Assembly (NCBI GenBank): GCA_018826075.1
Contig: JAHKAJ010000024.1
Coordinates: 4,343-68,342 of the forward strand
DNA: 64,000 nt
Reading direction: 5' to 3'
DNA from: Candidatus Omnitrophota bacterium
GTDB lineage: Bacteria; Omnitrophota; Gorgyraeia; Duberdicusellales; 4484-171
Within the stretch, counting starts at the first letter, position 1. The number at the start of each line of letters is the position of its first letter. The position numbers and the translations under genes were made by a program. A model generated the notes under the pieces. The model searched no databases. It worked only from the letters and a program-made list of their open reading frames with translations, and was not told where the DNA came from. Positions 2,161 to 17,170 of the stretch are shown piece by piece.

Positions 2161-2172
2161 GGCTGAATAATT

Positions 2173-3888: not shown

Positions 3889-3905
3889 AATAACGGTGTT
3901 ATAAT
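3878..3905 (+). promoter_or_regulatory. Sigma70-like promoter (TTGAAA-16nt-TATAAT) upstream of first pilin gene
   Basis: TTGAAA at 3878-3883 and TATAAT at 3900-3905 with a 16-nt spacer, followed by RBS AAAGGAGAG and ATG at 3924. Confidence 0.45.
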
Positions 3906-3923
3906 GAAATTCAAAGGAGAGAT

Positions 3924-4634
3924 ATGCTAAATTTTAGGTTAGGCCGGAAAAAAATCGCCTTTACTTTAATCGAACTCTCAGTGGTTATTGCTATAATCAC
4001 AGTTTTAGCCAGCATTTCTATTCCCAATGTCAATCGTTACCTGATGAAGTCTCGCGATGCCAAACGGATTTCCGATATCCAGGTTTTGAGCCTGGCAATC
4101 GAAAGCTTTTATGATGACCAGGGTCATTATCCGGGTTGGAACGATACGCTTACCCTTACCCCTAAACTTGGCGATAATGGCGAATGTGTAGGTGTAGTCG
4201 GCCGTACGGTAGGAACAGACCCTTGCGCTAGCAGTATTTCCGGAGGCACTAACCGGGTTGACGGCGCTTTAGATGTCTTACTTAAGCCTTATATCCAGGG
4301 TGCGATTCCCAGGGATCCTTCCTACGATAATCAGCCAAATAATTTTTATTACGGCTATGATCCGCATCACGAGTACGTTATCCCTACTGCCATTGCTTGG
4401 TCTGATACTTTTCCTACTGCGAATACTTCTTGCAGCGGCTTAATGTATCCGCATGCCGGTTGGCCGGGAGTGGCTAACAATACTACTGCTGTTTTGAGCA
4501 TCCGCCGTTTTGAGTCAGATACTATACATCGCCACCGGGATACTTGTCGCGGTGCTACCCTTTATATGGATACTTCTGATTATAACATTGCTTTTCCGAA
4601 TATTGGTTATGGGAGTGGATTGGGTAATCTATAA
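3924..4634 (+). CDS. Type IV pilin / pseudopilin (prepilin-type N-terminal cleavage/methylation domain), 236 aa, many N-x-S/T sequons
   Basis: N-terminus MLNFRLGRKKIA|FTLIELSVVIAIITVLASISIP is a class III prepilin signal with Glu+5 and a hydrophobic helix. Confidence 0.8.
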   Translation: MLNFRLGRKKIAFTLIELSVVIAIITVLASISIPNVNRYLMKSRDAKRISDIQVLSLAIESFYDDQGHYPGWNDTLTLTPKLGDNGECVGVVGRTVGTDPCASSISGGTNRVDGALDVLLKPYIQGAIPRDPSYDNQPNNFYYGYDPHHEYVIPTAIAWSDTFPTANTSCSGLMYPHAGWPGVANNTTAVLSIRRFESDTIHRHRDTCRGATLYMDTSDYNIAFPNIGYGSGLGNL

Positions 4635-4642
4635 AAAAAAAC

Positions 4643-4670
4643 TTGCATTTTTTTTAATTTTCGTTATACT
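4643..4670 (+). promoter_or_regulatory. Sigma70-like promoter (TTGCAT-16nt-TATACT) upstream of second pilin gene
   Basis: TTGCAT at 4643-4648 and TATACT at 4665-4670. A strong RBS AAAGGAGG lies 8 nt before the ATG at 4742. Confidence 0.45.
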
Positions 4671-4741
4671 TCTAATTAAGGAAGTTCTAAATAGATCGGG
4701 TGTTTTTTCGTTGTTTAAAATGTGAAAAGGAGGTGTGTGAG

Positions 4742-5299
4742 ATGAAAGGTTTTACACTTATTGAATTGATTGTAGTCATTGCAATCATTGCAATTTTAGC
4801 TGCAATCATTGCTCCCAATGCTTTTAAGGCCATTGAAAAGGCTAGCCGTTCAGCTGCCATCGGTGATTTCCGCACCATCAAGACAGCTTCTATGGCTTTT
4901 TATGCTGACACTGGAACTTGGCCGATCACGAATTGTGAAGAGGCGCTTTTAAAGAATCGGAATAATACTACAGTTTGTGCTGATGTTACTGGCGCTGGAG
5001 GTATTTCCGGTTGGGATGGCCCTTATGTTGAAATGTGGCCGTCAAAAACCCGTTGGGGCGGGGTTTACACTTATACCAACAACAACAATATAACTTGGAA
5101 TGCTAGTTATGCTGCTGGTGAGACGGCTGGAGCTTGCATTGGAAGGTATATTGCCATGAATGGTACCCCGTTTGATACCGAAAAGAAGCTGGATGAACAG
5201 ATCGACGGAACAGTTAACAATACAACTGGTCAATATCGTTGGAATGCTTCTAATATTTCATACATGTTGATTTCAGCTGATTGCACATTGCAGAATTAA
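4742..5299 (+). CDS. Type IV pilin (likely major pilin), 185 aa; start corrected from ORF-track 4700 to the Met preceding the prepilin signal
   Basis: MKG|FTLIELIVVIAIIAILAAIIAP is a canonical short-leader prepilin signal. The gene has a strong RBS, its own promoter and a strong terminator. The mature part is sequon-rich. Confidence 0.8.
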   Translation: MKGFTLIELIVVIAIIAILAAIIAPNAFKAIEKASRSAAIGDFRTIKTASMAFYADTGTWPITNCEEALLKNRNNTTVCADVTGAGGISGWDGPYVEMWPSKTRWGGVYTYTNNNNITWNASYAAGETAGACIGRYIAMNGTPFDTEKKLDEQIDGTVNNTTGQYRWNASNISYMLISADCTLQN

Positions 5300-5316
5300 T
5301 TTTTAGACTATTAAGT

Positions 5317-5362
5317 AAAACCCTCTCTTTTCAGAAATGAAAGAGAGGGTTTTCTTTTTTTA
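5317..5362 (+). terminator. Rho-independent terminator after pilin gene
   Basis: AAAACCCTCTCTTT-loop-AAGAGAGGGTTTT stem followed by CTTTTTTTT. Confidence 0.7.
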
Positions 5363-5455
5363 AGAGCTTTGGGCTTTAAGAAAAACAAAAATACGATTGA
5401 CGCAGCAATAAACTTTAGTATAATAATCTATGTAGATTTATTCCAAAACCAAACC

Positions 5456-6169
5456 ATGGAACACTTACTTACTTTAGAAGGTATTTACAAAAAATTTAAG
5501 AGGACCGAAGTGCTTAAAGGGGTTAACCTTAAAGTACGAAAGGGCGAGATCTACGGCCTTTTAGGTATCAACGGAGCCGGTAAAACTACGCTGATCCGTT
5601 CCATTCTAGGTTTATTGCGAATCGACCAGGGCCGCATTCTGTTTAAAGGAAATATCTGCCAACCTAAGGATATCCAGAAAAATTTTGGTTTTTTACCGGA
5701 AAATTTCCTGCCCCCGAAAAATCTTAAAGGCATAGAGTTTCTTAGGATTTTAGGTTCGGGCTTTAATCTAAAACTGGCTGATATCAAGTCGTTGCTGGAG
5801 TTGGTTGGTTTAACCAAGCATAGCCGTAAATATATTGGAGCGTACTCCCGTGGGATGATCCAGCGCTTAGGCTTAGCCACTTGCCTGCTTAAAGATCCTG
5901 AAGTGATCATTTTGGATGAACCGACCTTAGGTTTAGATCCTCTGGGCCAGAAGCAGGTTTTAAATATAATCGCTGATTTAAACCGGAGGGGGAAAACCGT
6001 ATTTTTTTCATCGCATATACTTTCCCAAGTCGAACAGCTTAAAGCCAGGATAGCGGTGATCAACTCAGGCACTATCGCTTTTGAATCGGGAGTCGATGAG
6101 ATCCTAAAAAAACACAAGGCTTCCAGTCTAGAGGAGGCCTTTCTTAAAGAGGTAGAAGGGCAGAAATGA
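5456..6169 (+). CDS. ABC transporter ATP-binding protein; start placed at MEHLLTLEG rather than ORF-track 5369
   Basis: Walker A GINGAGKTTL, ABC signature-like SRGMIQRLGLA, Walker B IILDEPTLGLD and an H-loop. Overlaps the downstream permease by 4 nt. Confidence 0.8.
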   Translation: MEHLLTLEGIYKKFKRTEVLKGVNLKVRKGEIYGLLGINGAGKTTLIRSILGLLRIDQGRILFKGNICQPKDIQKNFGFLPENFLPPKNLKGIEFLRILGSGFNLKLADIKSLLELVGLTKHSRKYIGAYSRGMIQRLGLATCLLKDPEVIILDEPTLGLDPLGQKQVLNIIADLNRRGKTVFFSSHILSQVEQLKARIAVINSGTIAFESGVDEILKKHKASSLEEAFLKEVEGQK

Positions 6170-6927
6170 GAAAATTTTTAGCAATTTCTTTTCTTAATTT
6201 TAAAGAAGCAGTGCGCGATAAATTTTTCCTGGGAGTGGTTTTTTTCTTTATTTTTTATCTTTTGTTCTGTATTTTTCTGGGAAAGCTTTCAGTCGGCCAC
6301 GCTGACAAGGTGATGCGGGATGCCGGCCTGGCCGGAATCGAACTTACTGCTATAATCCTGGTCATTTTTAGTTTTACTTTCAGTTTTTTTCGCGAGAAAG
6401 AAAACCGGATCTTAGAAGTTTACTTGACTGATTTTTCACCCGGTATTTGCGTCAGCGGCAAAATTTTCGGTTATGTCCTGCTTTGCGGGTTATACCTACT
6501 TTTGTCAGCAATTGCCTTCGGAGGGCTGCTTTATTTAAACCAGGCCTTTAATCTGGCCTCACTGGTTGCTCTATACCCTTTATTCTTAAAGATCGTGATT
6601 ATCATTTTTTTGGCTTCTTTGTTTTCCACCTTATTTTCTTCGGCAACCACTGCCCTTCTTTCATTGCTTTTTGTTTATGTCGGGGCAGAGCTTATTCCTT
6701 CGGCTTTAGCTATCGTGAAAGCTTACGGGGCTCCGGTCCAAAAAGTTTTTATTAAATTTATCTATCTTTTTTTTCCTAATATGGACAAACTGGACATTAA
6801 ATCCCTGGCAGTATATGGGAAACTTCCCGATTACCGGTTTTTCCTGGGAATCACCATTTATGCCCTGGTCTACTGTTTGTTTTTATGGTTAATAAACTTG
6901 CTCATTTTTCAGAAAAAGGAATATTAA
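6166..6927 (+). CDS. ABC-2 family transporter permease (6 predicted TM helices)
   Basis: Highly hydrophobic 253-aa protein translationally coupled to the ABC ATPase. No specific motifs were seen. Confidence 0.6.
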   Translation: MRKFLAISFLNFKEAVRDKFFLGVVFFFIFYLLFCIFLGKLSVGHADKVMRDAGLAGIELTAIILVIFSFTFSFFREKENRILEVYLTDFSPGICVSGKIFGYVLLCGLYLLLSAIAFGGLLYLNQAFNLASLVALYPLFLKIVIIIFLASLFSTLFSSATTALLSLLFVYVGAELIPSALAIVKAYGAPVQKVFIKFIYLFFPNMDKLDIKSLAVYGKLPDYRFFLGITIYALVYCLFLWLINLLIFQKKEY

Positions 6928-7796
6928 AATTTCTAGTTTTCCTGGCCTGCCTTTTAATTATTCCTTTTTTGTCCCTTCGATTGCAGACGGACACTGCGCT
7001 GCTTGGTGAGCGTCTGCTTTTTGTCCCCCCGCAAGAGTATCTAAGTAACATCCGGGGAGGTTTTCGCAACCTCTTGGCCGATGTTTATTATATCAAAGGC
7101 GTGCTTGCTGTCACTGATGAGTTTAATAGCCGCCAGGAAAGGATTTCCTGGACCCAACAAGTTTTCAAAGCGGCAGTGCTTCTGGATAAAGATATGCTTC
7201 AGGCCTATTTTTTTGCCGGTTCGGCTATTGTCAACAGCAAAGAAGAACTTAAACAGGGAAACGAATTCTTGATCCTGGGTTTGACCAACAGCCCTTCCTA
7301 TTGGCAGATCCCTTACTGGATCGGATTTAATTATTACCTTATCGGCGACAGCCTTAAAGCCGCCGAGTTTTACCGGTTGGCTTCCCAGCGGCCGGGAGCG
7401 CCTAATTTTTTAAAAAGCAACCAGGCGATGCTGTTTTATAAGGCCGGTGAACCGCGAATGGGCTTGATGTACTTGGAAGGTTTGCTGGAGTCAGTAAGCG
7501 ATCCTGAGCAGCTCAAATGGGTAAAGCTTAAAATCGAATGGCTTAAGAACATGATTGTTTTGCAGGATGCAGTCGAGTCGTTTAAGGATCGTTACAACCG
7601 CCTGCCGCAGGATTTGGAAGAACTAATCAGCCGACGGCTGATCTCAAGCGTCCCCAAAGACCCTTTTGGCGGCGGCTATTACCTGGATGATCAATCGGGA
7701 AAAATCAAAAGTTCTTTTGGGATGCCGACTAAGGTCAAAACCACTCCGGAAAAGCCGGCTGAATCCGGAGAAGGCTGTTCTAAATGCAAAAAATAA
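6885..7796 (+). CDS. Hypothetical membrane-anchored protein with TPR-like helical region, part of the pilus/ABC cluster
   Basis: N-terminal TM (ILKFLVFLACLLIIPFLSL) followed by an alpha-helical region. Overlaps the permease 3' end and the next pilin gene start. Confidence 0.4.
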   Translation: MVNKLAHFSEKGILKFLVFLACLLIIPFLSLRLQTDTALLGERLLFVPPQEYLSNIRGGFRNLLADVYYIKGVLAVTDEFNSRQERISWTQQVFKAAVLLDKDMLQAYFFAGSAIVNSKEELKQGNEFLILGLTNSPSYWQIPYWIGFNYYLIGDSLKAAEFYRLASQRPGAPNFLKSNQAMLFYKAGEPRMGLMYLEGLLESVSDPEQLKWVKLKIEWLKNMIVLQDAVESFKDRYNRLPQDLEELISRRLISSVPKDPFGGGYYLDDQSGKIKSSFGMPTKVKTTPEKPAESGEGCSKCKK

Positions 7797-8305
7797 TCAC
7801 CAATCGGCAAAAATCGGGGTTTACTCTAGTTGAATTTATCATGGTCATTGCGATCATCTCCATGATCTCAGTGACTATCGGAGTTTCCCCTTCCACACTT
7901 ACGCCCCGCAAGCTTGAAAACGAAGTCCAGAAAATAGTCGGTGATTTAAACTGGGCCCGGGCTATGGCCATTTCCACTGGCTATCATTACCGGATAGATT
8001 TTGACATCAACAACGATACAGTGGTCAGTAGCACCGACAATAATACCTATATAATCTATAAAGTCGATCCCGCAGATTTAGTCAACGGAACACCGGTCAA
8101 ACGCGGGGTGTTGAGGGTAGATGGTATCAATCTGACTCATTCTTCGCCAGCCGTACCGATATATTTATTTGAATTTATCAGCCCGCAAGGCGGTCTTAAC
8201 AGTACGGTTCTTGACCCTTTGACTATTCATCTGGAGCTAAGCGGCGCGGCAAGTAACATAACTGTCCGCAACTTAACCGGTTATATAAGCTGGGATCGTT
8301 TATGA
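7784..8305 (+). CDS. Minor pilin / pseudopilin (GspH/FimT-like), 173 aa
   Basis: MQKIITNRQKSG|FTLVEFIMVIAIISMISV prepilin signal. The size and position are typical of a GspH-type pseudopilin. Confidence 0.7.
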   Translation: MQKIITNRQKSGFTLVEFIMVIAIISMISVTIGVSPSTLTPRKLENEVQKIVGDLNWARAMAISTGYHYRIDFDINNDTVVSSTDNNTYIIYKVDPADLVNGTPVKRGVLRVDGINLTHSSPAVPIYLFEFISPQGGLNSTVLDPLTIHLELSGAASNITVRNLTGYISWDRL

Positions 8306-9684
8306 AAAAAAAGCTGGCTAAAGCTTTCAGCCTTATTGAAGTTGCCGTGAGCATAACGGTTTTGGGCCTGGTCATTGTCGCAATTGTGCCGGCCATAAAC
8401 AGTGCTTTGCGCCGGGCCCGAATCTCAAACTACAAAGCCGTAGCTCACCGCCTAGCTCAGGAAAGGATTGAGCAGCTGACCGGGACTAATTTCAACAGTG
8501 ATTTTTATGACGGGTTATTCAATCTTACTACCGGCAATCCTTGGAACGATACCGTCTTTCATTTGTTAGGAAACAATACCTTTCCCGGAAACGAGGCTTA
8601 CGGAAACCTTTCGCTTAATACCAGCGACCCTGATGATCCTTTTAGTCATTACAGCCGGTTGACCGAAGGTTCCTGGGATCTTGACCAGGATAGGACTTTA
8701 GATAACGAGAAGTTGGCTGGACGGCCTTTAACGGGGATGTATGGTAATTTAAGCCTGGTCCGGGTAAGCGTATCTTGGGATTTTAATGAAGATGGAGTCG
8801 ATGATTATGAACCGGTGGTAGTAACAACTTTTAAGGCCGGCAGCCTTGAATCTACATGTTCAGCCATGAACCTGGTCAATACTCCTTTTTTAGATAATTC
8901 CACTGACCTTTGCTCTGAACCGGATAAAACTCTGCCAGCCAGTTTTGACGGTACTCTTAACAGCCGGATAACGCCTTACACTGCTGGTACTTTGACTATT
9001 AATGCCAATGTAGGCTGGGCTAATTGTCCTTCTTATTTTATCCTAGCTAATTCGGTAGTTTTAGATGGTTCACCCACGGTTTATGCTGAAGGTAAGACCA
9101 ACTCTACTCTTGATGGCGGTTCGGGTGGTTCTGGCGGCGGCGGTGGTGGTGGCTTTTGTGGGTTTGGTTTTCGTCTTGGAGGCAATGGCGGTAGTGGTGG
9201 TAACGGAATAGGTGCTTGCGGGGCAGGCGGAACTGGCTGTGGCAATAGTTATAATTCAGGTTTTACTTATGGTACGGGTGGTAGTGGTGGCAATGCCGTA
9301 CTGCCTGGCGGAGTCGGTGGCGCTGGCGGTAATGGTTTCGGTGGTGGTGGCGGCGGCGGGACTGTAGCTCCCGGGTTACCTTATGGCCAGGGTGGTGGTG
9401 GAGGTGGAGGCTTAATAGTGATCGTGACTTCTTCCCTTAGTGGCGGCGGCACTTTGAATGCCGCTGGTGGTAATGCTACAGGTTTGTCCTTTCCCGGAGG
9501 GGGCGGAGGAGGAGTGATTTGGATTGCTGCTGAGTCTTACGACGGTAGTATTAGTGCCGACGTTAACCGAGGCACCAACGACTTTCCAGTTCCTATTTTT
9601 AACGCCACATCCGGTATAGCCAGGATTTTTCAACTGAATACTGATGGTTCTCTTACCGCTAGGAATTTCACTGATACCTGGTAA
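8302..9684 (+). CDS. Large minor pilin-like protein with glycine-rich low-complexity central region
   Basis: MKKKLAKA|FSLIEVAVSITVLGLVIVAIVP prepilin-type N-terminus. About 140 aa (roughly 9115-9540) are dominated by GGSGG/GGNGG/GGGGGG tracts. It has ~11 N-x-S/T sequons. Confidence 0.6.
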   Translation: MKKKLAKAFSLIEVAVSITVLGLVIVAIVPAINSALRRARISNYKAVAHRLAQERIEQLTGTNFNSDFYDGLFNLTTGNPWNDTVFHLLGNNTFPGNEAYGNLSLNTSDPDDPFSHYSRLTEGSWDLDQDRTLDNEKLAGRPLTGMYGNLSLVRVSVSWDFNEDGVDDYEPVVVTTFKAGSLESTCSAMNLVNTPFLDNSTDLCSEPDKTLPASFDGTLNSRITPYTAGTLTINANVGWANCPSYFILANSVVLDGSPTVYAEGKTNSTLDGGSGGSGGGGGGGFCGFGFRLGGNGGSGGNGIGACGAGGTGCGNSYNSGFTYGTGGSGGNAVLPGGVGGAGGNGFGGGGGGGTVAPGLPYGQGGGGGGGLIVIVTSSLSGGGTLNAAGGNATGLSFPGGGGGGVIWIAAESYDGSISADVNRGTNDFPVPIFNATSGIARIFQLNTDGSLTARNFTDTW

Positions 9685-9703
9685 AATAAGTTTTGTTTAG
9701 AAT

Positions 9704-11248
9704 ATGAAGTTTAAAAAGTATAAGCTTTCAGTAACTTTGGTCGAGGCAGTGGTAGTTGTGGCTATCTTTGCGGTGATTGCCGCGGCTACTGGTTCGATCC
9801 TGTTTACAGCCAGCCGTTCTGGTTCGCGCCTGGCTGACAAGGCTAAGGTTTTTCAGGATGCTACCTGGGCTATGGATTATATGGTTAACGAAGCCCGCTG
9901 GGGAGCTGATTTTTACCTTGCTCCGGTTCCTTTTGAAAATTATGACCTGATTACCTTTCAAAGCGATACCAACCATAATAGGACTGATCCCAATGATCCT
10001 TGCGTTTGGTATTGGCGGGGTTTTACTACCACCGCTATTCCGGCGGTAAATTACGGCAATAGCAGCATCTTGTACCGTGGTTTGGATGCCGCTTGTAACA
10101 CTGATAATACTACTTCTTTACAGGCAGCTAATGCCAGCCGCCAGGAACTGGTTGGTTTTATAGTCGATAACCCGGTTAATGCTACGGGTAACCCGGTAAG
10201 GGTATTTGGTTGGAACAATACCACTAGTGAATTTAGCGTTGTCTTGACTACCCAGAATCCTTCAATCCATGATAACCAGACCTTGAAAGCTAAGGTAGTG
10301 GCTTTAAATAATGTAGAGAGAGCTATCTGTCAGTGTTCTGATGGCCAAGATAATGATGGAGATGGGGGGATTGATTATCTTACTGAAGCCAGTGAAACCT
10401 GCGGCCTTTTCTTTGAGTATGATGACGTCAGGTACGGCGGGACTGGTTTTCCCAATTTTAGATTTGACCAGACTCTTGATTCGATCTTGCCGGGAAACAA
10501 GTTTCAGGATTTTAATTTTCGCAATGAACGGTTTAAGCTTTGGGTAGATTTCAGGATGTTCTCAACTCTTGGCGCCAGCACCGGTTATGGCTATGGTTCC
10601 TCCGGCTATGCCGGCCCGAATTTCAGCAGCGATGCCGACAGTTTTATACATATGGATTTGCTTGTCCGGGCTCCTTATGATATTCAAGGTATCCCTGAGA
10701 GCACTTTTTATGCCAACACCATCAACTCTCAGACTATGCTGGGTATTGGCAGCTGGCTGGATTTATCCACTCAGCCTGCAGGCAACGTCTGGATTTTTAA
10801 GGATGAAAGAAGGGATAAATATCGTGTAAGCCAGGTTCATTCCAGCCGAGCGGAAAGGGCTGCAGCTGTGGTCAGTGCGCCGAATTTTAGCTATAGTGTA
10901 CCGCCCTGGTGTGAAACCAGCCCCGGCGGCCCCTGCGTAGCGAATTATTATTATAATACTTATGGTAATGGCGGTTATATTTATGTTGATAATAGCGGTG
11001 AGCTGCATATTGGTTACGTGATTAGCCGTACGAAGTACAATTATCTTTGTTCTGCCCACCCGACTTTTCTTGTCGGTATAACCAAAGACAGCTGTACTGA
11101 TCCGGCTTGCGCCGATGGAGTTGATAATGACGGTAATGGTTTTATTGATTATCCTGAGGATCCTGGCTGCGCCTCGGCTAAGGATATTTCAGAAGTTGCC
11201 CATGACCTGCAGTGTGTAGATGCCAATGACATGTACGAATATAAGTAG
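9704..11248 (+). CDS. Large minor pilin-like protein with two MopE-like putative metal-binding motifs
   Basis: N-terminus MKFKKYKLSVTLVEAVVVVAIFAVIAAA is a degenerate prepilin-like signal with Glu and a hydrophobic helix. It has CSDGQDNDGDGGIDY (about 10324-10378) and CADGVDNDGNGFIDYPEDPGC (about 11088-11170). Confidence 0.55.
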   Translation: MKFKKYKLSVTLVEAVVVVAIFAVIAAATGSILFTASRSGSRLADKAKVFQDATWAMDYMVNEARWGADFYLAPVPFENYDLITFQSDTNHNRTDPNDPCVWYWRGFTTTAIPAVNYGNSSILYRGLDAACNTDNTTSLQAANASRQELVGFIVDNPVNATGNPVRVFGWNNTTSEFSVVLTTQNPSIHDNQTLKAKVVALNNVERAICQCSDGQDNDGDGGIDYLTEASETCGLFFEYDDVRYGGTGFPNFRFDQTLDSILPGNKFQDFNFRNERFKLWVDFRMFSTLGASTGYGYGSSGYAGPNFSSDADSFIHMDLLVRAPYDIQGIPESTFYANTINSQTMLGIGSWLDLSTQPAGNVWIFKDERRDKYRVSQVHSSRAERAAAVVSAPNFSYSVPPWCETSPGGPCVANYYYNTYGNGGYIYVDNSGELHIGYVISRTKYNYLCSAHPTFLVGITKDSCTDPACADGVDNDGNGFIDYPEDPGCASAKDISEVAHDLQCVDANDMYEYK

Positions 11249-11251
11249 ACA

Positions 11252-13501
11252 ATGAGTCAAAATAAGCTTCAAAAAACTCAAACTTTGCTTTACGTCAGTT
11301 TTGCCCTGCTGGCAGTCAGTGTGGTGGCGGCTGTGGTTATGACCAGTGTCATCACTAACCTAAAAACCGCCTCTTATCAGCAGAAAGGAATGGATGCTTA
11401 TCAGCTGGCCATGGCCGGGGTTGAACGGGCTAAGGTCGAGCTGGCTAATAGTTGGGGTTGGCCAGGCATGGATGATGGCGGGGATGATGATCCTCATTTG
11501 GGAGAAGCCGGCTCGGATGAAACTGAAAGCCTGGGTGATGGCCAATACTGGGTGGCGATAGCAGATAATGTTGATGGTACGGTGACTGCGATTTCTCACG
11601 GTTGGGTGGGTGATGCTCATCAGGTGATCGAGGTGATAATAGAACAAGTAGCCGGCACAGTCCCTGTTCCTGAAGGGGTATTTGTGGCTGAACGGGATAG
11701 AAACCGGGTCAGTCAACTGGATGAGAACGGTGATCCTGTCTGGTCGCTGGAAGGAGCGCCTATGGGTGCCGGTCAAATTGCTTTTAACCCTAACACTAAT
11801 GAATCCTGGGTGTTTGCCGGGAGTCAGATCGTCAAATTAGGGGCTAATGGCATAGCCGAGTGGTCTTATCAGTTAGCTGTTGGTTCTGGACGCCTTGATG
11901 TTACGGTTAACCCTTATACTAGTGAAGTCTGGGTGGCTAATTTTGACGGCGACCAGGTAGTTAAATTAAATGCTGACGGAAGTTTGGGCTGGGTAGTTAA
12001 TTTTGGCAGTAACAGCCGGCCGACTTCAGTGGCTATAGTTCCTGAAACTACACCAAATACTACTCAATCCTGGGTGAGCTGCAGCAATAGCAACAGAAGG
12101 CTTTATAAGTTAAACGCTAATGGCAGTGTTGCTTGGTCTCTTTACAGGACTGATTTCCGGCTTTATTCGGTGGCAGTTGACCCTAATACTAAGGATTCTT
12201 GGGTAGCGCAGTATTATAACAACCGTATTGGTAGAGTAGATAATAATGGAGCAATGAAGTCTGGCTGGCCTAAAGGCGGCTTTAACCGTCCTTTTGCTGT
12301 TTCAATTAATCCTACTACGCGGGAATGCTGGGTAGGCGAAGTACGTGGTCACCGAATCATAAAATTAAATGATAACGGTACTTGGGCTTGGAATCTGAAT
12401 ACCGGTAGAGATATAGGCAAAATTTCGGTTGACCCTAATACTAATGAATGTTGGGCCGTTGGTGCTAACTGGGTTGCTAAAATAATAGACAATGGTACGT
12501 TTGGATCATTTGCTTTCCAAAATACCTCATTATCGATTCCTAGTTTGGATGTAGCCTCGATTGAAGTTGACCCGGCTACTGGAGAATGCTGGGTGAATGA
12601 ATCTGGCCGCAGCCGGGTTGTGCGTTTGGATACCAATGGCAATAAAGTTTGGCAAAGCCCGGCTTTCAATGCTTATGCGCTTGCCGGACTCGATTCCGGA
12701 GAAGTTTGGGTAGCTAATTACAACTCTTCAGCTGCATACACCGGTGTGGTTAAAGCCAATTCTGTTCCTTCAGTTGACTGGATGAGTGATGATATCTGGG
12801 CTGAGTCGCGTTCGATAGCAGTAAATTTTGCCGGTGAATCCTGGGTGGCTGATTATAACCGTGATAGAGTTAGGAAATTGAGGGCTGATGGTACAATTGA
12901 GTGGACCAAGAATCTTAACAACCCAATTTCAGTTGCAGTTAACCCTAACACCAATGAGTGTTGGGTGGCTTATAATGGTAACAGAGTTAGAAAATTAAAT
13001 GCCGATAGTACAAATGCCTGGACCAGGAGCGGCCTTAACGACCCAAGATCAGTTTCAGTTAACCCTAACACCAATGAGTGCTGGGTGGCTGAATATGGCG
13101 GTGGTAGAGTTAGAAAATTAAGGGCTGATGGTACAATTGAGTGGGGCAGGAATCTTAGCAACCCGATCTCGGTCTCAGTTAACCCCACTACTAGCGAATC
13201 CTGGGTGGCTGAATATGGTGCTAATCGGGTTAGAAAACTAAATGCCGACTCTACAGTTGCCTGGACCAGGGGCAGCCTTAGCGGACCGGTTTCAGTATCA
13301 GTCAATCCGGTTACCAGCCAATGCTGGGTGTCTACTGTTACGGGTACTGCTCGAGTAATCAAGTTGGATACCGACGGTACCGTAGTAGTTGACAAGTCCG
13401 GGTATAGTTATCCATCAGCAGTATCAGTCCCGCTGGTTGACACCAGTGCAACAGTTAACAATTCGATTAATGTTCAGTCCGGCAGCTGGCGGAAACCTTG
13501 A
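11252..13501 (+). CDS. PilX-N-terminal-domain minor pilin fused to ~14 tandem beta-propeller-type repeats (PilY1-like tip adhesin candidate)
   Basis: The N-terminus has a TM helix plus LAMAGVERAKVEL, which is PilX_N-like. About 40-aa repeats then run from 11690 to 13430, with consensus V-R/K-K-L-N-A-D-G-x-x-x-W … V-S-V-N-P-N-T-N-E-C-W-V-A. Confidence 0.55.
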   Translation: MSQNKLQKTQTLLYVSFALLAVSVVAAVVMTSVITNLKTASYQQKGMDAYQLAMAGVERAKVELANSWGWPGMDDGGDDDPHLGEAGSDETESLGDGQYWVAIADNVDGTVTAISHGWVGDAHQVIEVIIEQVAGTVPVPEGVFVAERDRNRVSQLDENGDPVWSLEGAPMGAGQIAFNPNTNESWVFAGSQIVKLGANGIAEWSYQLAVGSGRLDVTVNPYTSEVWVANFDGDQVVKLNADGSLGWVVNFGSNSRPTSVAIVPETTPNTTQSWVSCSNSNRRLYKLNANGSVAWSLYRTDFRLYSVAVDPNTKDSWVAQYYNNRIGRVDNNGAMKSGWPKGGFNRPFAVSINPTTRECWVGEVRGHRIIKLNDNGTWAWNLNTGRDIGKISVDPNTNECWAVGANWVAKIIDNGTFGSFAFQNTSLSIPSLDVASIEVDPATGECWVNESGRSRVVRLDTNGNKVWQSPAFNAYALAGLDSGEVWVANYNSSAAYTGVVKANSVPSVDWMSDDIWAESRSIAVNFAGESWVADYNRDRVRKLRADGTIEWTKNLNNPISVAVNPNTNECWVAYNGNRVRKLNADSTNAWTRSGLNDPRSVSVNPNTNECWVAEYGGGRVRKLRADGTIEWGRNLSNPISVSVNPTTSESWVAEYGANRVRKLNADSTVAWTRGSLSGPVSVSVNPVTSQCWVSTVTGTARVIKLDTDGTVVVDKSGYSYPSAVSVPLVDTSATVNNSINVQSGSWRKP

Positions 13502-13585
13502 ATCGAATAAATTTATTAATCAATAATTTACTTTTGTCCAGGCGCATAATATAATAAACTTAGCGAAAGTTAATTTAAAAAATCT

Positions 13586-14785
13586 ATGCCAGCTTATAAA
13601 TACACAGTAAGGGACAGGTTCGGAAGAAAAGTCAAAGGCTTTTCTATTGCTGCTGACCGCAGAGTTTTAGCTGAAGAGCTGGCTAAAATGGGCTATATTT
13701 TTATCTCCGCTGATGAAGTCGGCCGGCTAAAGCAGGGAAAAACCATAAAGATCAAGAAAGGCGAGGTTCTTAATCTTACCCGTAACCTATCAGCGCTTTT
13801 AAACGGCGGTATTCCTTTACTTGAGTCTTTGACTGCTTTGATCGGTGATACGTCCGAGTTAAATTTATTAAGTATCCTTATAAGTATTAAGAGTTATGTT
13901 GAGGCCGGCGGTTCATTCCGGGATGCTTTAGTTCTTCATCCCAAAGTATTTTCGGAATTATACCGGGCAGTAGTGGCTGGCGGAGAGGCAACTGGAAGGT
14001 TAGGGGCAGCGCTTGAGCAGATGTCTGATTATCTTGAGTGGGAGCAGGACCTTCAATCAAGGGTGCAAGGATTGGCAATATACCCGATCATTCTTTCAGT
14101 GATCATGCTTTTGGCTTTAGGTGTTATTGTTATCGTAGTTTTGCCGAAGTTTGAAGCTTTGTTTTCTGATTTTGGAGCTGAATTACCACTGATCACCCAG
14201 TTGGCCATGTCCATGAGTAAAATAGTCGCCAAGACCTGGGTTTATATTCTTGGGGCTATCATTTCTGCGGTAATTGTGTTAAAATTGATAATAAAGCGGA
14301 ATTACCGCTTGGCTCTTTTTTTCGATAAGTATAAACTTAAGCTTCCGATTTTCGGCGATGTAATCTATAAGTTATGCGTTTCACATTTCGCCAGGTCAAC
14401 GTACCTTTGTTTGTTTAACGGGATACCGATCGTCACCACCTTGGATATGGTACGCCAGACTGTGGGGAACAAATATTTAGAGGCGGCTTTGGACATGGTT
14501 AAGAAAAGTGTTTTTACCGGAGGCGAACTTTCAATGGCTCTTTCCGGGACCAATGCTTTCCCCAGCTTTATGGTCCGGATGGTCCACGTCGGAGAGAGCG
14601 CCGGTAATTTAGCCGACGGTTTTAGTAAAACCTGTAAGTTTTACGATAAGGAGATCCCCCGATTGATCGGCGCGGTATTCTCTATTTTAGAGCCGCTAAT
14701 AATTGTTTTTTTAGGCGTAGCAGTCATGGGTTTGGCCTTTGTGGTCTTTTTGCCTTTGACCCAGCTGTTACAGAAAGTAGGTTAA
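13586..14785 (+). CDS. pilC: Type IV pilus / T2SS inner-membrane platform protein (PilC/GspF family)
   Basis: 399 aa with two T2SSF-like repeats and 3 TM segments. The N-terminal cytoplasmic domain resembles PilC. Confidence 0.8.
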   Translation: MPAYKYTVRDRFGRKVKGFSIAADRRVLAEELAKMGYIFISADEVGRLKQGKTIKIKKGEVLNLTRNLSALLNGGIPLLESLTALIGDTSELNLLSILISIKSYVEAGGSFRDALVLHPKVFSELYRAVVAGGEATGRLGAALEQMSDYLEWEQDLQSRVQGLAIYPIILSVIMLLALGVIVIVVLPKFEALFSDFGAELPLITQLAMSMSKIVAKTWVYILGAIISAVIVLKLIIKRNYRLALFFDKYKLKLPIFGDVIYKLCVSHFARSTYLCLFNGIPIVTTLDMVRQTVGNKYLEAALDMVKKSVFTGGELSMALSGTNAFPSFMVRMVHVGESAGNLADGFSKTCKFYDKEIPRLIGAVFSILEPLIIVFLGVAVMGLAFVVFLPLTQLLQKVG

Positions 14786-14786
14786 T

Positions 14787-16448
14787 ATGAAAAATATTGT
14801 TGCTATTGATATCGGCGCCTGCCTTACCAAAATAATTGTTGCTGAAGACAAGCGCAAACTGCTGGAGATAGCCTCGTTTAAATATTTCCCGACCCCTTAC
14901 CGTAAAGACGACGTTTTTGATGAAGAGGTTTTTTTCGAACGCTTATTTGCGGTTATCAGCCAGGAAGTGCTAAAGTCATCACAGGTGGCTATCGGGCTTC
15001 CTTCGCCGACGACTAACTTTTCTTTTTTTGAATTACCGTCGATGGGGGCTGCTGATTTAAAAAAAGCCATTATCAGTGAAGCTCAGCGGACGATCCGTCC
15101 CACACCGGCAGATAGTGATATCCTGCGCTATGCTGTTTTGAAGAGTCCCCAGGCTAAGGAAGTCAAACATGCCAATATTTTAGTTGGTTCGGGGGTATCG
15201 GCTGAGATTACCCGCTATTACACTTTATTCGAGCGCCAGGGGATCACCCCCAGTTTTATCGGTTCTTCGGCCTCAAGCCCGATGGTTTATCCTTTAGGCT
15301 ATTACCCGGATTTACCGTCCGGTTGGTGTTTTGTCGACATTGGTTATACTAACACTACGATTGTTATTTTTTTCAACAACATCCCGACTTTAGTCCGGAC
15401 CATACTTTTTGCCACTCGCGATTTTATCCGGGCCATCTCCACCGATAAAAAAATCGGGCTTAAAGAAGCTCAGGATGTTTTTTTAAAACGCGAAGCCCAG
15501 GAATTAGCCGATACTAACTGGGAATACCTGATTTCGGAGATCCGGCGTTCTTTTGCTTACTACAAGGAAGTTTCCGGCGGTAAAGCCATTGAAGGGGTGC
15601 ACTTTACCGGAGGCATCTTTGCCGTAGGGCCCTATATCGATATTTTAAAGAAAAACATTGGCGGAAAAGTCGAGCTATTCGATGCCCGTATAGTTAAAAA
15701 AATATCCTTGGATAAAGTCGCGGCTGAAGAAATTACCAGCGCCGGTTACTTTTTCGCTAATTCTTTAGGTTTAGCCTTATCTTTATGCGAAAAGAAGCAA
15801 ACCTTGAATTTTTTACCGGAAACGGCTTTGAAAGAGAAACAAACCGAAATCGTTAAGTCTCTTTCTCGGCAAGTGCTCACGGTTTTGACTCTTGGCTTAG
15901 CAGTAATTTTCTGCCTGTCGTTGTTTTGGATTTCAGCAGTCAGGGGAAAATTAAAAAATGAGCTTTTGACTTTTTCCGAACAGGAATACCAAGATGCGGT
16001 TGCTACTGAAAATGAGATCACTCAAATAGAAAATCAAGTTACCGCCGAAGCTGATTTTATTGCCGAACAAGTCAGGCTCGGCGAGCAGCGCCGTAAGGTT
16101 TTTTCGGTTATCGCCAAATGCCTGCCTAGCAATGCTTATGTGGTTACTTTTGAATTCGGTTCGGGTTCTCCAGCGGCTGCCCCAAGTTCTTCTGGCGGCC
16201 GGCGCGGCCAGCCAGCCAGTCCAGCCAGCGAAGGAGAAACTGTTAAATGTGAGGGCCGGATTCAAGGAACCTACGAAGATACCGTTGAACAGCTTAAAGT
16301 CCTTGCCCGCAAGCTGCGTAAATCCGATATGTTTTCGGAAGTCACAGTTTCCCGTCAGACCCTTGGCAGTGAGCCGTTTTTGCCTTATCTTTCTGATTTT
16401 ACCGAAAATGTAAGAAGACAATTTACTTTGGAGTTAAAATTAAAATGA
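14787..16448 (+). CDS. pilM: Fused PilM (actin-like ATPase fold) - PilN-like (TM + periplasmic) protein
   Basis: N-terminus MKNIVAIDIGACLTKIIV is a PilM/FtsA-like fold running for ~340 aa. A single TM helix (VLTVLTLGLAVIFCLSLFWISAV) follows, then a ~180-aa periplasmic region. Confidence 0.6.
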   Translation: MKNIVAIDIGACLTKIIVAEDKRKLLEIASFKYFPTPYRKDDVFDEEVFFERLFAVISQEVLKSSQVAIGLPSPTTNFSFFELPSMGAADLKKAIISEAQRTIRPTPADSDILRYAVLKSPQAKEVKHANILVGSGVSAEITRYYTLFERQGITPSFIGSSASSPMVYPLGYYPDLPSGWCFVDIGYTNTTIVIFFNNIPTLVRTILFATRDFIRAISTDKKIGLKEAQDVFLKREAQELADTNWEYLISEIRRSFAYYKEVSGGKAIEGVHFTGGIFAVGPYIDILKKNIGGKVELFDARIVKKISLDKVAAEEITSAGYFFANSLGLALSLCEKKQTLNFLPETALKEKQTEIVKSLSRQVLTVLTLGLAVIFCLSLFWISAVRGKLKNELLTFSEQEYQDAVATENEITQIENQVTAEADFIAEQVRLGEQRRKVFSVIAKCLPSNAYVVTFEFGSGSPAAAPSSSGGRRGQPASPASEGETVKCEGRIQGTYEDTVEQLKVLARKLRKSDMFSEVTVSRQTLGSEPFLPYLSDFTENVRRQFTLELKLK

Positions 16449-17170
16449 GCGAAAAAATCAAAGTGAAAATCCCCAAAATAAGCCCCGAACTGTTAAAAAA
16501 TAATCTGTTGATCGTGGTTTTCGCCGCCGCCGTATTATTTTTAGTTTTGAATGTTTTAGTTTGGCTTTCAGGGCAGGCGGTGGTGAAGCAGACCGTTGAG
16601 ATCAAGCAAAAGAAGGAAAAGATAGTACAGGTCGCTAAAAAATTAAAAAAGACCATTGAAAATAAGCCTCACCTTAAGGCTGAGGAGTTTGCCCGAAAAA
16701 TTCCTTTTCAGGCAATACCGCCGATAGCGGCTATTCAACAGGCTGGCTTGATCATCAGCTCAATCGGAGCCCAAGGTGAGATTGTTGCCAGCGAAGGTTC
16801 AGCCGGGGCTGCATCAGGGGGGTCTGGTTCGGGAAGCCAGGGCACTTCCAGCCAGGACATCGGAGAACTTATTCTAGTTGGTTCCAAAAGCCTCAGCCAA
16901 CAGCAATTTTCTTTTCAATTTGACTCTGACTATGAAGATCTTATGAAAATTTTGGAAAAAATCCCTTCTGCTGATCCTTTGATGTTGGTTAGTGGTTTTG
17001 TCATCGAGCGGATAGATAAAGATGATGTAGGAGAACCGATACCCGGCACCCCATTCGTTACCATACCTCTGGTATCCGGCGACGTGCGTAAGCTGGACAT
17101 TGAACTTAAACTGATTACTTTTACTGAAGTCTCGCCCGATGAACCTATCTGGTCATCAGGAAAAAAATAA
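16445..17170 (+). CDS. PilO/PilP-like bitopic membrane protein (hypothetical)
   Basis: N-terminal TM followed by a coiled segment, a Gly/Ser linker and a beta-rich C-terminal domain. It sits directly after PilM-N. No diagnostic motif was seen. Confidence 0.35.
   Translation: MSEKIKVKIPKISPELLKNNLLIVVFAAAVLFLVLNVLVWLSGQAVVKQTVEIKQKKEKIVQVAKKLKKTIENKPHLKAEEFARKIPFQAIPPIAAIQQAGLIISSIGAQGEIVASEGSAGAASGGSGSGSQGTSSQDIGELILVGSKSLSQQQFSFQFDSDYEDLMKILEKIPSADPLMLVSGFVIERIDKDDVGEPIPGTPFVTIPLVSGDVRKLDIELKLITFTEVSPDEPIWSSGKK

Follow-up and report, generated by a model that had tools for sequence, protein, structure and literature searches.

The 64,000-nt stretch of Candidatus Omnitrophota DNA analysed here (the window) encodes a 514-aa pilin-like protein with two acidic, cysteine-containing motifs, for which a preliminary description had considered copper binding of the MopE type as well as calcium binding as in PilY1. 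This raises the question of which repeat family the motifs belong to, which metal they are likely to bind, and what they might contribute to a pilus subunit. The open reading frame is identical to the NCBI entry [quoted passage not shown]. Both motifs were located in it, with their starts 260 aa apart, in agreement with the initial observation that two related motifs of the metal-binding type reside on this protein. The module order is a minor pseudopilin (aa 1-205), repeat 1, a region that we refer to as domain X (aa 234-461), and repeat 2 (Table 1).

Table 1 Features of the locus, with nucleotide positions counted from the first letter of the window.
Feature	Position	Strand	Description or basis
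Type IV filament (T4P/T2SS-like) gene cluster	13..17170	+	Pfam/NCBIfam annotation, gene order
Minor pseudopilin, 460 aa, upstream	8302..9684	+	A/FSLIE; own EF-hand-like loop, Gly-rich C-terminal extension
EF-hand-like loop of the 460-aa pseudopilin	8779..8805		D160-F-N-E-D-G-V-D-D168
Probable modular minor (pseudo)pilin, 514 aa	9704..11248	+	ORF list; 100% match to P0001
Pilin module, aa 1-205	9704..10318	+	KLS/VTLVE with Glu5, hydrophobic helix, conserved pair Cys100/Cys131
Motif 1, aa 209-225	10328..10378		CQCSDGQDNDGDGGIDY
Repeat copy 1, aa 209-233	10328..10402	+	C209-Q-C211-SDGQDNDGDGGIDY-LTEASET-C233; degenerate half-unit
Domain X, aa 234-461	10403..11086	+	Rare beta-rich passenger without database annotation
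Repeat copy 2 with outer Cys, aa 464-504	11093..11215	+	C464-TDPA-C469-ADGVDNDGNGFIDYPEDPG-C489-ASAKD494-IS-E497-VAHDLQ-C504
Canonical core of repeat copy 2, C469..E497	11108..11194		
Motif 2, aa 469-489	11108..11170		CADGVDNDGNGFIDYPEDPGC
749-aa protein, downstream	11252..13501	+	Pilin-like hydrophobic N-terminus without Glu5; NHL-type beta-propeller repeats

Gene context and pilin module

Four minor-pilin-like genes, of which the gene for the 514-aa protein is the third, form a block within a complete type IV filament operon (secretin/GspE/GspF/PilM). The first part of the cluster comprises a secretin, a GspE/PilB ATPase, two pilins, and an ABC ATPase together with two unknown ORFs; the last part comprises the four minor-pilin-like genes, GspF/PilC, a PilM-like gene and one unknown ORF. 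The cluster is syntenic with L001 (Omnitrophica MAG GCA_021735655.1), L004 and L006. T4aP clusters are common in Omnitrophota, and host attachment has been proposed as their role (PMC10066038). A "symbiotic" F-type ATPase had been reported next to Omnitrophota T4aP clusters; an operon of this kind is absent from the 20 annotated ORFs downstream (up to ~47.5 kb), which are housekeeping genes.

Both neighbours of the 514-aa gene are relevant to its interpretation. The EF-hand-like loop of the upstream 460-aa pseudopilin is invariant in two orthologues, and the L005/L006 orthologue of this pseudopilin carries one canonical repeat unit at its end. The downstream 749-aa protein matches the Pfam families NHL, Vgb_lyase and DUF5122; it has orthologues in L004 and L006, and a 981-aa LamG protein stands in its place in L001. 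This NHL protein is a probable tip partner of the 514-aa pilin. No PilY1 gene was seen among the annotated genes of the operon.

The putative class III signal peptide of the 514-aa protein combines a basic leader, Glu5 and a hydrophobic helix, with Ser instead of Gly at position -1, and the match to Pfam N_methyl is sub-threshold (18.8 bits at a cut-off of 21.2). A canonical G/FTLLE is found in P0134 (193 aa), a distant homologue of the pilin module and one of several stand-alone homologues, the others being P0132 (207 aa) and proteins of L004 (201 aa) and L006 (222 aa). The N-terminus, these stand-alone homologues and the location in a pilus operon together argue for the pilin nature of the protein. 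In the AlphaFold2 model, a long helix at the N-terminus leads into beta strands, with pLDDT 83-88 at aa 100-150; a profile of the module found no match among PDB sequences. Judging from gene order and the sub-threshold HMM matches, the 514-aa protein is probably a modular minor pilin of an Omnitrophota type IV filament, with a place in the tip or priming complex.

The two motifs as copies of an acidic repeat

The motifs correspond to the repeat unit of NCBIfam NF033662, C-x-DG-x-DNDGDG-x-x-D-[FY]-P-x-DPGC-x-S-x-x-D-x-x-E, in which two invariant Cys are spaced by 21 residues. This "acidic double-disulfide repeat" forms tandem arrays in secreted and surface proteins of Myxococcota, Rhodanobacteraceae, CPR bacteria and Nanoarchaeota, and 115 of the 118 repeat-bearing proteins in our hit set contain 3-12 copies (mode 7). 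On the 514-aa protein, the NF033662 model matched two stretches with a whole-protein score of 33.1 bits (E = 3.3e-8), which is below the curated cut-off of 41, as is the score of the orthologue P0002 (37.1 bits); multi-copy proteins reach 74-212 bits and pass this cut-off easily. Counted per copy, motif 1 scored 23.1 bits and motif 2 scored 28.1 bits. These values are typical of the family, since bona fide array proteins average ~16-19 bits per copy (for example, 211.6 bits for 11 copies).

For a closer comparison we used our own repeat HMM, built from 130 units of unrelated proteins, with the 514-aa protein and its orthologue left out. Motif 2 aligned along the full unit with 56.9 bits, which exceeds the 95th percentile of 924 family units, and matched all consensus positions of 679 family units. 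Motif 1 scored 21.2 bits, near the 5th percentile of the same 924 units, and aligned to profile positions 3-18 only. This first copy preserves the EF-hand-like loop D216-N-D-G-D-G-G-I-D224 in full; the second half of the unit is divergent, and a 2-residue shift of the closing Cys gives a Cys spacing of 23. Besides the two motifs, nothing in the six-frame translation of the window scored above 4 bits. The earlier assignment of the motifs to a repeat that is common among secreted, Cys-containing proteins is supported. The repeat is also present on another pilin, P0051, which carries at least 7 tandem units and is encoded in a GspE/GspF locus.

Literature searches for the repeat (DNDGDG, Cu-binding_MopE, minor pilin plus thrombospondin) returned teneurin papers only and no bacterial proteins, and neither a metal-binding experiment nor a solved structure was found in the literature or the PDB for bacterial members of the family.

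Copper or calcium

The Pfam model Cu-binding_MopE (PF11617) gave no match on the whole protein (E ≤ 1) or on the excised motifs (E ≤ 10), and none on five multi-repeat array proteins (E ≤ 1); the Pfam search for other metal-binding families yielded only marginal EF-hand matches. The copper site of MopE*/CorA is formed by two His and a kynurenine, which is an oxidised Trp, in a beta-sandwich protein with a separate structural Ca2+ (PMC3423442, PMC3912023), whereas motifs 1 and 2 are devoid of His, Met and Trp. Their conserved positions are all Asp, Asn or Glu, and their candidate ligands are all oxygen donors. MopE-type copper binding by the 514-aa protein, as initially proposed, is therefore not expected from its sequence. 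A broader version of this proposal, in which the two motifs mediate MopE-like copper binding, the binding of another transition metal, or mineral binding and adhesion, can draw on the alignment of the teneurin core with PF11617 by Tucker et al. 2012 (PMC3278476), on the presence of PF11617 in one repeat-bearing hit (P0094), and on C209-x-C211 of motif 1, which could in principle hold a soft metal. It is very unlikely nonetheless, given that Asp, Asn and Glu are hard-oxygen ligands typical of Ca2+ and that the homologous teneurin domain binds Ca2+.

The relationship to this domain is visible at the level of single residues. The best PDB match of the 514-aa protein was the C-rich domain of teneurin-4 (7PLP), with an E-value of 1.1 that is marginal and not significant alone. 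The domain binds three Ca2+ via E835, D840, D843, N844, D845, D847, D851, D854 and D856, and its six Cys are paired 1-3, 2-5 and 4-6, including a C838-C857 disulfide (PMC9058538). D466, D471, D474, N475, D476, N478, D482 and D486 of motif 2 align, in this order, to the first eight of these ligands. Hence eight of the nine side-chain ligands are kept in motif 2, in which D856 is replaced by G488, and seven of the nine in motif 1. C469 and C489 align to the C838-C857 pair; C852 and C858 correspond to Y483 and A490, and the six-Cys pairing is unmatched.

The repeat profile and motif 2 also align to loop 2 of calmodulin (DADGNGTIDFPE), with marginal E-values of 0.001-0.4, and D474-NDGNGFIDYP-E485 fits all positions of the 12-residue EF-hand loop DxDxDGxIDxxE. 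EF-hand_1 scored 12.4 bits compared to a cut-off of 25.4, and the AlphaFold2 model has coil on either side of the loop and no helix-loop-helix. Among the ~128,000 translated residues, just three stretches fit the looser EF-hand-like pattern D.[DN].[DN]G..[DE], namely motifs 1 and 2 and one in the adjacent minor pilin gene, which encodes the 460-aa pseudopilin. PilY1 proteins need an EF-hand-like site of the consensus Dx[DN]xDGxxD for the function of T4aP and the stability of the protein (PMC8833165). The thrombospondin type 3 repeat (PF02412) was matched neither by the 514-aa protein nor by the excised motifs. PF02412 is present in some other repeat-bearing proteins of the hit list.

Overall, the sequence of the repeat points to Ca2+ rather than copper binding. 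The suggestion of calcium binding as in PilY1 fits, with motif 1 being an exact instance of the PilY1 consensus and motif 2 nearly identical to calmodulin loop 2.

Domain X and modularity of the pilin

Domain X is rare and, in a set of 1.84 billion representative proteins, confined to 13 clusters. Elsewhere, it lacks flanking repeats and is located either at the C-terminus of Fn3/Big-rich proteins or at the N-terminus of giant proteins rich in Cys. A domain X profile found no match among PDB sequences, and the comparison with the LamG module of the positional orthologue by hhalign gave a probability of 0.2%, so that the two have no detectable relationship.

An AlphaFold2 model from a 4-sequence alignment had a mean pLDDT of 35 and was unusable for this reason. 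An enriched 40-row alignment gave moderate confidence for domain X and motif 2, but not for motif 1 and aa 151-230. The core of domain X is all-beta (pLDDT 80-97), motif 2 has no regular secondary structure (pLDDT 73-80), and motif 1 reaches a pLDDT of 30-45. Foldseek found no match of this model in the PDB at E ≤ 0.001; the weak top matches (jelly-roll capsid proteins and GH16 enzymes) had TM values of 0.1-0.2 and were not relied on.

Comparison with the orthologue P0002 revealed that the modules diverge to different extents, with 90% identity in the pilin module and 53% in domain X. Repeat unit 2 differs in 11 of its 29 residues, and C1, D3, D6, N7, D8, [DN]10, D14, D18, C21, D26 and E29 are kept. 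In the motif 1 loop, C-x-C-S-D-G-x-D-N-D-G-D-G-x-I-D-Y, every consensus position is the same, with three synonymous codon changes, and Cys233, the closing Cys of copy 1, is Gly in P0002. The alternative that the motifs are part of a disordered linker without Cys pairing, which the preliminary description had raised, is contradicted for motif 2 by its 21-residue Cys-to-Cys spacing and its pLDDT, and holds in part for motif 1, which combines low pLDDT with the missing Cys in the orthologue.

The positional orthologue in the syntenic operon of L001 consists of a pilin and a LamG module and lacks domain X, and the orthologous pilins of L004 and L006 have no extension at all. The pilin module is found alone (P0132, P0134 and the genes of L004 and L006) as well as with a different graft (the LamG variant P0003), and domain X is found independently of it, which is the pattern that defines modular pilins.

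Proposed role of the repeats

We consider it fairly probable from these sequence comparisons that the 514-aa protein is a modular minor pilin in which NF033662-type repeats serve as connectors, stabilised by Ca2+ and disulfides, of the tip module domain X, with no MopE-type copper involved. After export and prepilin processing, the disulfides C469-C489, perhaps the outer C464-C504, and C211-C233 would close acidic loops, as suggested by the invariant Cys1/Cys21 spacing in the family and by the C838-C857 bond of teneurin-4. The loop residues D-x-D-N-D-G-[DN]-G-x-x-D...D/E would bind at least one Ca2+ via oxygen ligands, in line with their match to the EF-hand and PilY1 loops and to calcium sites I/II of the teneurin C-rich domain. 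Ca2+ and disulfide may rigidify segments that have no hydrophobic core and yield stiff connectors or caps at both ends of domain X, a role suggested by other surface proteins, in which tandem arrays of the repeat are stalk-like. Domain X itself might be a fast-evolving ligand-binding or adhesive module shown by the pilus, considering the LamG swap in the positional orthologue and its fast divergence compared to the pilin module; its tip location and adhesin function are inferred from analogy and synteny only.

Instead of being structural, the sites might act as a regulatory calcium switch as in PilY1, in which Ca2+ occupancy controls pilus assembly, extension and retraction, or the deployment of domain X. 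Such a switch would suit the PilY1 consensus in motif 1, whose counterpart is needed for T4aP function and stability (PMC8833165), the apparent lack of PilY1 in the operon, and the placement of all three EF-hand-like matches of the window on two adjacent minor pilins, the third being invariant in orthologues. We regard it as unlikely, because the long tandem arrays in non-pilus surface proteins imply a structural role of the repeat and the teneurin and thrombospondin-type sites are structural. Moreover, orthologous pilins without extension exist in L004 and L006, and the repeats must therefore be dispensable for filament assembly as such. A similarly improbable alternative is that only motif 2 is functional, motif 1 being what is left of a decaying repeat in a flexible stretch that links the pilin module to domain X, with no role in ion binding. 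The partial profile match in the 5th percentile, the Cys-to-Gly exchange in P0002 and the low pLDDT would agree with decay, but the loop consensus is the same in both orthologues while domain X is only 53% identical, and motif 1 retains the complete Dx[DN]xDGxxD loop that is sufficient for Ca2+ binding in PilY1 (PMC8833165).

A further reading, which we judge to be quite unlikely, concerns a tip without PilY1 that bears three EF-hand-like loops on two adjacent minor pilins. Here, the first and last strands of domain X would pair at its base, and the two repeats would come together at this point as a composite clamp that depends on Ca2+ and disulfides, so that the adhesive module would be rigid and competent only in a Ca2+-containing exterior. 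If true, attachment of a possibly host-dependent nanobacterium would be under the control of a calcium gate that is carried by a pilin and independent of PilY1. Dockerins also contain paired EF-hand-like loops, and the loops might accordingly be docking devices, dockerin-like or T3-like, that tie the pilin to its NHL-propeller neighbour or to other repeat-bearing surface proteins. The modules of the neighbouring tip proteins indeed co-vary (NHL with domain X in the window, LamG with LamG in L001). Yet the loops are separated by 260 aa and do not form one small module, no cohesin-like partner was identified, and Pfam gave no dockerin or TSP_3 match; we rejected a dockerin or TSP3 reading of the repeats for lack of HMM support and hold a docking function to be extremely unlikely.

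The NF033662-type repeat is abundant in surface proteins of the poorly studied Myxococcota, CPR bacteria, DPANN archaea and Omnitrophota and has no Pfam model, and the searches turned up no member that had been studied by experiment. Its sequence link to the Ca2+-loaded C-rich domain of teneurin and to the EF-hand and PilY1 loops provides a testable chemistry, and a misleading copper/MopE label is corrected. The locus is also a further example of an operon family whose tip minor pilins exchange large C-terminal modules, namely domain X, LamG, a Gly-rich and a Cys-rich region and NHL propellers, with recurrent sites of the calcium type. This pattern fits the proposed host attachment by Omnitrophota type IV pili and indicates which parts are likely to determine specificity.

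Comparison with known systems

Several known systems resemble the 514-aa protein in part. With PF11617, the motifs share the short acidic core C.DG.DN[DN]CDG..D, but PF11617 has Cys where the NF033662-type repeat has Gly (DNDCDG compared to DNDGDG), and the copper site of MopE*/CorA is unrelated to the repeat motif. Within NF033662, motif 2 represents a complete, top-scoring unit, and the outer Cys464/Cys504 recall a four-Cys variant of the repeat (CPxC...C...SExC); in contrast to the tandem arrays of the family, however, the 514-aa protein has two copies, one of them a half-unit, which flank another domain. The teneurin C-rich domain shares the core CxDxxDNDGDGxxD[CY]xDPxC in a segment without regular secondary structure, but has six Cys and a conotoxin-like C-terminal half, whereas the bacterial unit has two (or four) Cys and a conserved downstream D...E.

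As regards PilY1, its consensus is matched exactly by motif 1 and, with N at position 5, by motif 2, and in both cases the site is located on a minor-pilin or tip-complex protein. It differs in that the loop of the 514-aa protein lies in a repeat predicted to be disulfide-closed, on a pilin, and without a PilY1 domain. Both modular pilins and pilus tip proteins that depend on Ca2+ are already established, and the 514-aa pilin is no new principle. The former class includes S. sanguinis PilB with vWA, PilC with a lectin module, and CofB (PMC8179133). The 514-aa protein has in common with them an N-terminal pilin module with a grafted and probably tip-exposed C-terminal module, and modules that can be swapped, as illustrated by LamG in the orthologue and in PilC. 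What sets it apart is its passenger, a rare unannotated domain, which is joined to the pilin via Ca2+-type repeats instead of a short plain loop.

Two copies of an acidic repeat in a minor pilin-like protein

The 514-aa protein is 100% identical to an NCBI entry annotated as 'hypothetical protein' from a Candidatus Omnitrophica MAG and contains 12 cysteines (100, 131, 209, 211, 233, 403, 411, 449, 464, 469, 489, and 504). Both of its motifs are matched by the NCBIfam model NF033662 ('acidic double-disulfide repeat'; 23.1 and 28.1 bits). The sum for the protein, 33.1 bits, is below the whole-protein cut-off of 41, which is tuned to arrays; bona fide array proteins reach about 16-19 bits per copy. 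Among 134 fetched proteins, mostly homology-search hits, 118 carried the repeat, mostly as 3-12 tandem copies and adding up to 837 units. From the 679 units in which Cys-to-Cys spacing is 21 residues, we derived the consensus C-[SA]-D-G-x-D-N-D-G-D-G-x-[ITV]-D-[FY]-P-x-D-P-G-C-x-[SA]-[AP]-x-D-x-x-E. Motif 2 agrees with all conserved positions, including downstream D494 and E497, while motif 1 agrees at positions 1-15 and 18 and differs beyond, its closing cysteine lying two residues late.

We additionally scored the motifs with our own profile of 130 repeat units taken from unrelated proteins. Motif 2 reached 56.9 bits, above the 95th percentile among 924 family units, and motif 1 reached 21.2 bits, with the match confined to the first half of the unit. 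With the 64-kb window translated in all six frames, no further segment exceeded 4 bits. In view of these scores, the two metal-binding-type motifs reported in the preliminary description are real and not a product of chance.

Features of the minor-pilin region (AF2 values from the enriched alignment)
Feature	Protein (aa)	Window (nt)	Strand	AF2 pLDDT	Remarks
Secretin		13-2160			long C-terminal extension
ABC-type ATPase gene and two ORFs		5369-7796			ORFs of 253 and 303 aa
Minor-pilin-like gene 1	173 in total				GspH-like
Minor-pilin-like gene 2	460 in total	8302-9684			pseudopilin
EF-hand-like loop of gene 2	160-168	8779-8805			W-D-F-N-E-D-G-V-D-D
Minor-pilin-like gene 3	514 in total	9704-11248	+		ORF with motifs 1 and 2
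Putative prepilin cleavage site	8-14	9725-9745			KLS|VTLVE
Pilin module	first ~205				complete minor pseudopilin
Motif 1	209-225	10328-10378	+	30-45, with preceding linker	CQCSDGQDNDGDGGIDY; model unreliable
Domain X	234-461	10403-11086	+	80-97 (core)	all-beta core
Domain X insertion	402-411	10907-10936			WCETSPGGPC; 11 residues
Motif 2	469-489	11108-11170	+	73-80	CADGVDNDGNGFIDYPEDPGC; without regular secondary structure
Minor-pilin-like gene 4	749 in total	11252-13501			NHL beta-propeller repeats

Probable calcium rather than copper binding

The preliminary description had suggested MopE-like metal binding or, alternatively, calcium as in PilY1. The first suggestion was not supported: PF11617 (Cu-binding_MopE), the Pfam family proposed there as a check, matched neither the 514-aa protein (E ≤ 1) nor the excised motifs (E ≤ 10) nor five multi-repeat relatives (E ≤ 1). 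In addition, copper in MopE*/CorA is bound by two His residues and a kynurenine, and the structural Ca2+ there is separate from this site (PMC3423442, PMC3912023), whereas motifs 1 and 2 offer oxygen-donor residues only. A copper site of the MopE type is therefore not supported. MopE was nevertheless a fair lead, since the resemblance of the teneurin core to PF11617 had already been noted by Tucker et al. 2012 (PMC3278476), but the oxygen donors direct the chemistry to calcium.

The sole solved relative obtained by sequence search, with a weak E of 1.1, is the C-rich domain of teneurin-4 (7PLP). [quoted passage not shown] In this HMMER alignment, motif 2 matches eight of the nine side-chain ligand positions (D466, D471, D474, N475, D476, N478, D482, and D486), and C469/C489 fall on the disulfide; motif 1 retains seven of nine. 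Separately from the teneurin match, calmodulin EF-hand loop 2 aligns with the repeat profile and motif 2 (VDNDGNGFIDYPE versus VDADGNGTIDFPE), and motif 1 corresponds to the EF-hand-like PilY1 consensus Dx[DN]xDGxxD (PMC8833165). Judged by sequence, these likenesses support the PilY1-like alternative, and the repeat chemistry points to calcium.

Across the six translated frames of the window, the pattern D.[DN].[DN]G..[DE] has only three matches, and these lie in the adjacent 460-aa and 514-aa minor pilins. The loop of the 460-aa pseudopilin is unchanged in its orthologues from two related loci, L006 and L001.

A passenger domain between the repeats

The pilin module has stand-alone homologues (P0132, 207 aa; P0134, 193 aa, with a canonical G|FTLLE; L004, 201 aa; L006, 222 aa). 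The putative cleavage site has Ser instead of Gly at -1, which is kept in P0132, P0003, and P0002, the sole full-length orthologue (68% identical). Domain X is a rare, separate, uncharacterised beta-rich domain of ~200 aa; when 1.84 billion representative proteins were searched in full with HMMER, only 13 clusters at 50% identity contained it. Elsewhere it is C-terminal in Fn3/Big-rich proteins or N-terminal in Cys-rich giant proteins, and none of these other cluster members has flanking repeats. Strongly conserved motifs are FKDExRDRW, HSSR, APTFxGxPW, and NTYGNGxYxYVD (including P0121-P0131); several of the proteins are large, exceeding 1,000 aa, and rich in Cys. The insertion carrying Cys403 and Cys411, probably a small disulfide-closed loop, sits in the most conserved part of the domain and is missing from P0002 and all other family members.

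The order pilin, repeat 1, domain X, repeat 2 was found only in the 514-aa protein and P0002. Identity between the two is 90% in the pilin module and only 53% in domain X; in unit 2, 11 of 29 residues are changed, with all consensus and ligand positions kept. Such divergence would be expected for a fast-evolving exposed module on a constrained scaffold.

AF2 gave a pLDDT of 35 with a four-sequence alignment and a mean of 67.6 with an enriched 40-row alignment. The irregular model of motif 2 resembles teneurin C-rich and T3 repeats, which likewise lack regular secondary structure. Foldseek of the model yielded no significant match, PDB profile searches with the pilin module and domain X were negative, as was hhalign of domain X against LamG. 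The two motifs may lie close together in the fold, because they adjoin the beta-strands that open and close domain X (aa 234-240 and 450-461, respectively) and because P0002, which lacks C233 and C464 and retains C209, C211, C449, and C504, still has, once the canonical pairs are set aside, cysteines at the two ends that could pair with one another.

Overall, we favor, with some reservation, a structural role, in which the repeats would be Ca2+- and disulfide-stabilised connectors that fix a variable passenger domain to a minor pilin of the tip. The minority alternative is a regulatory calcium switch.

Related operons and module exchange

The 514-aa gene is the third of four minor-pilin-like genes within a cluster encoding a secretin, a GspE/PilB ATPase, two more pilins, GspF/PilC, and PilM. 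The secretin extension has weak TPR matches, likewise in L001. The pilin genes are separated from the minor-pilin block by a gene for an ABC-type ATPase and by two ORFs that have no Pfam match, an arrangement kept in L001. The 460-aa pilin has a long Gly-rich C-terminal extension (aa ~300-440; GGSGG/GGGGGGG runs, scattered Cys), which is missing in the 179-aa L001 orthologue and is replaced by a Cys-rich one in L006. At its N-terminus, the 749-aa protein is hydrophobic and pilin-like, lacking Glu5, and it contains roughly a dozen repeats of the NHL type (NPNTNECWVAEY..RVRKL.ADGT..W). It may be a beta-propeller fused to a pilin and acting in the role of PilY1; its orthologues measure 734 aa (L004) and 445 aa (L006). 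Over the first 50 kb (1-50278), the + strand carries nearly all long ORFs and GC skew stays positive, which would agree with a single replichore whose genes strongly favor one strand.

In the syntenic operon of another Omnitrophica MAG (L001, GCA_021735655.1), the same pilin module is fused to LamG, and a 981-aa LamG protein replaces the NHL protein in the following gene. The orthologue in L005/L006, from another Omnitrophota MAG, has no extension; the preceding gene (L006:4962-6014; same protein in L005) encodes a 350-aa minor pseudopilin with a single canonical C-terminal unit (CSNNLDDDGDCLIDFPDDPGCMSPSDDDE, 44 bits), and the repeat also occurs on a different tip pilin within the same operon family. 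An unrelated pilin from a GspE/GspF locus (P0051, GFSLIE start) carries at least seven tandem units. Therefore, pilins have acquired the repeat on several occasions, and tip pilins of this operon family freely exchange C-terminal modules.

The NF033662 repeat, the modular pilin, and the Ca2+-dependent pilus tip protein are each of an already known kind. Repeat grafting and module exchange fit established modular pilins (PMC8179133), as well as the proposal that Omnitrophota T4aP mediate host attachment (PMC10066038).
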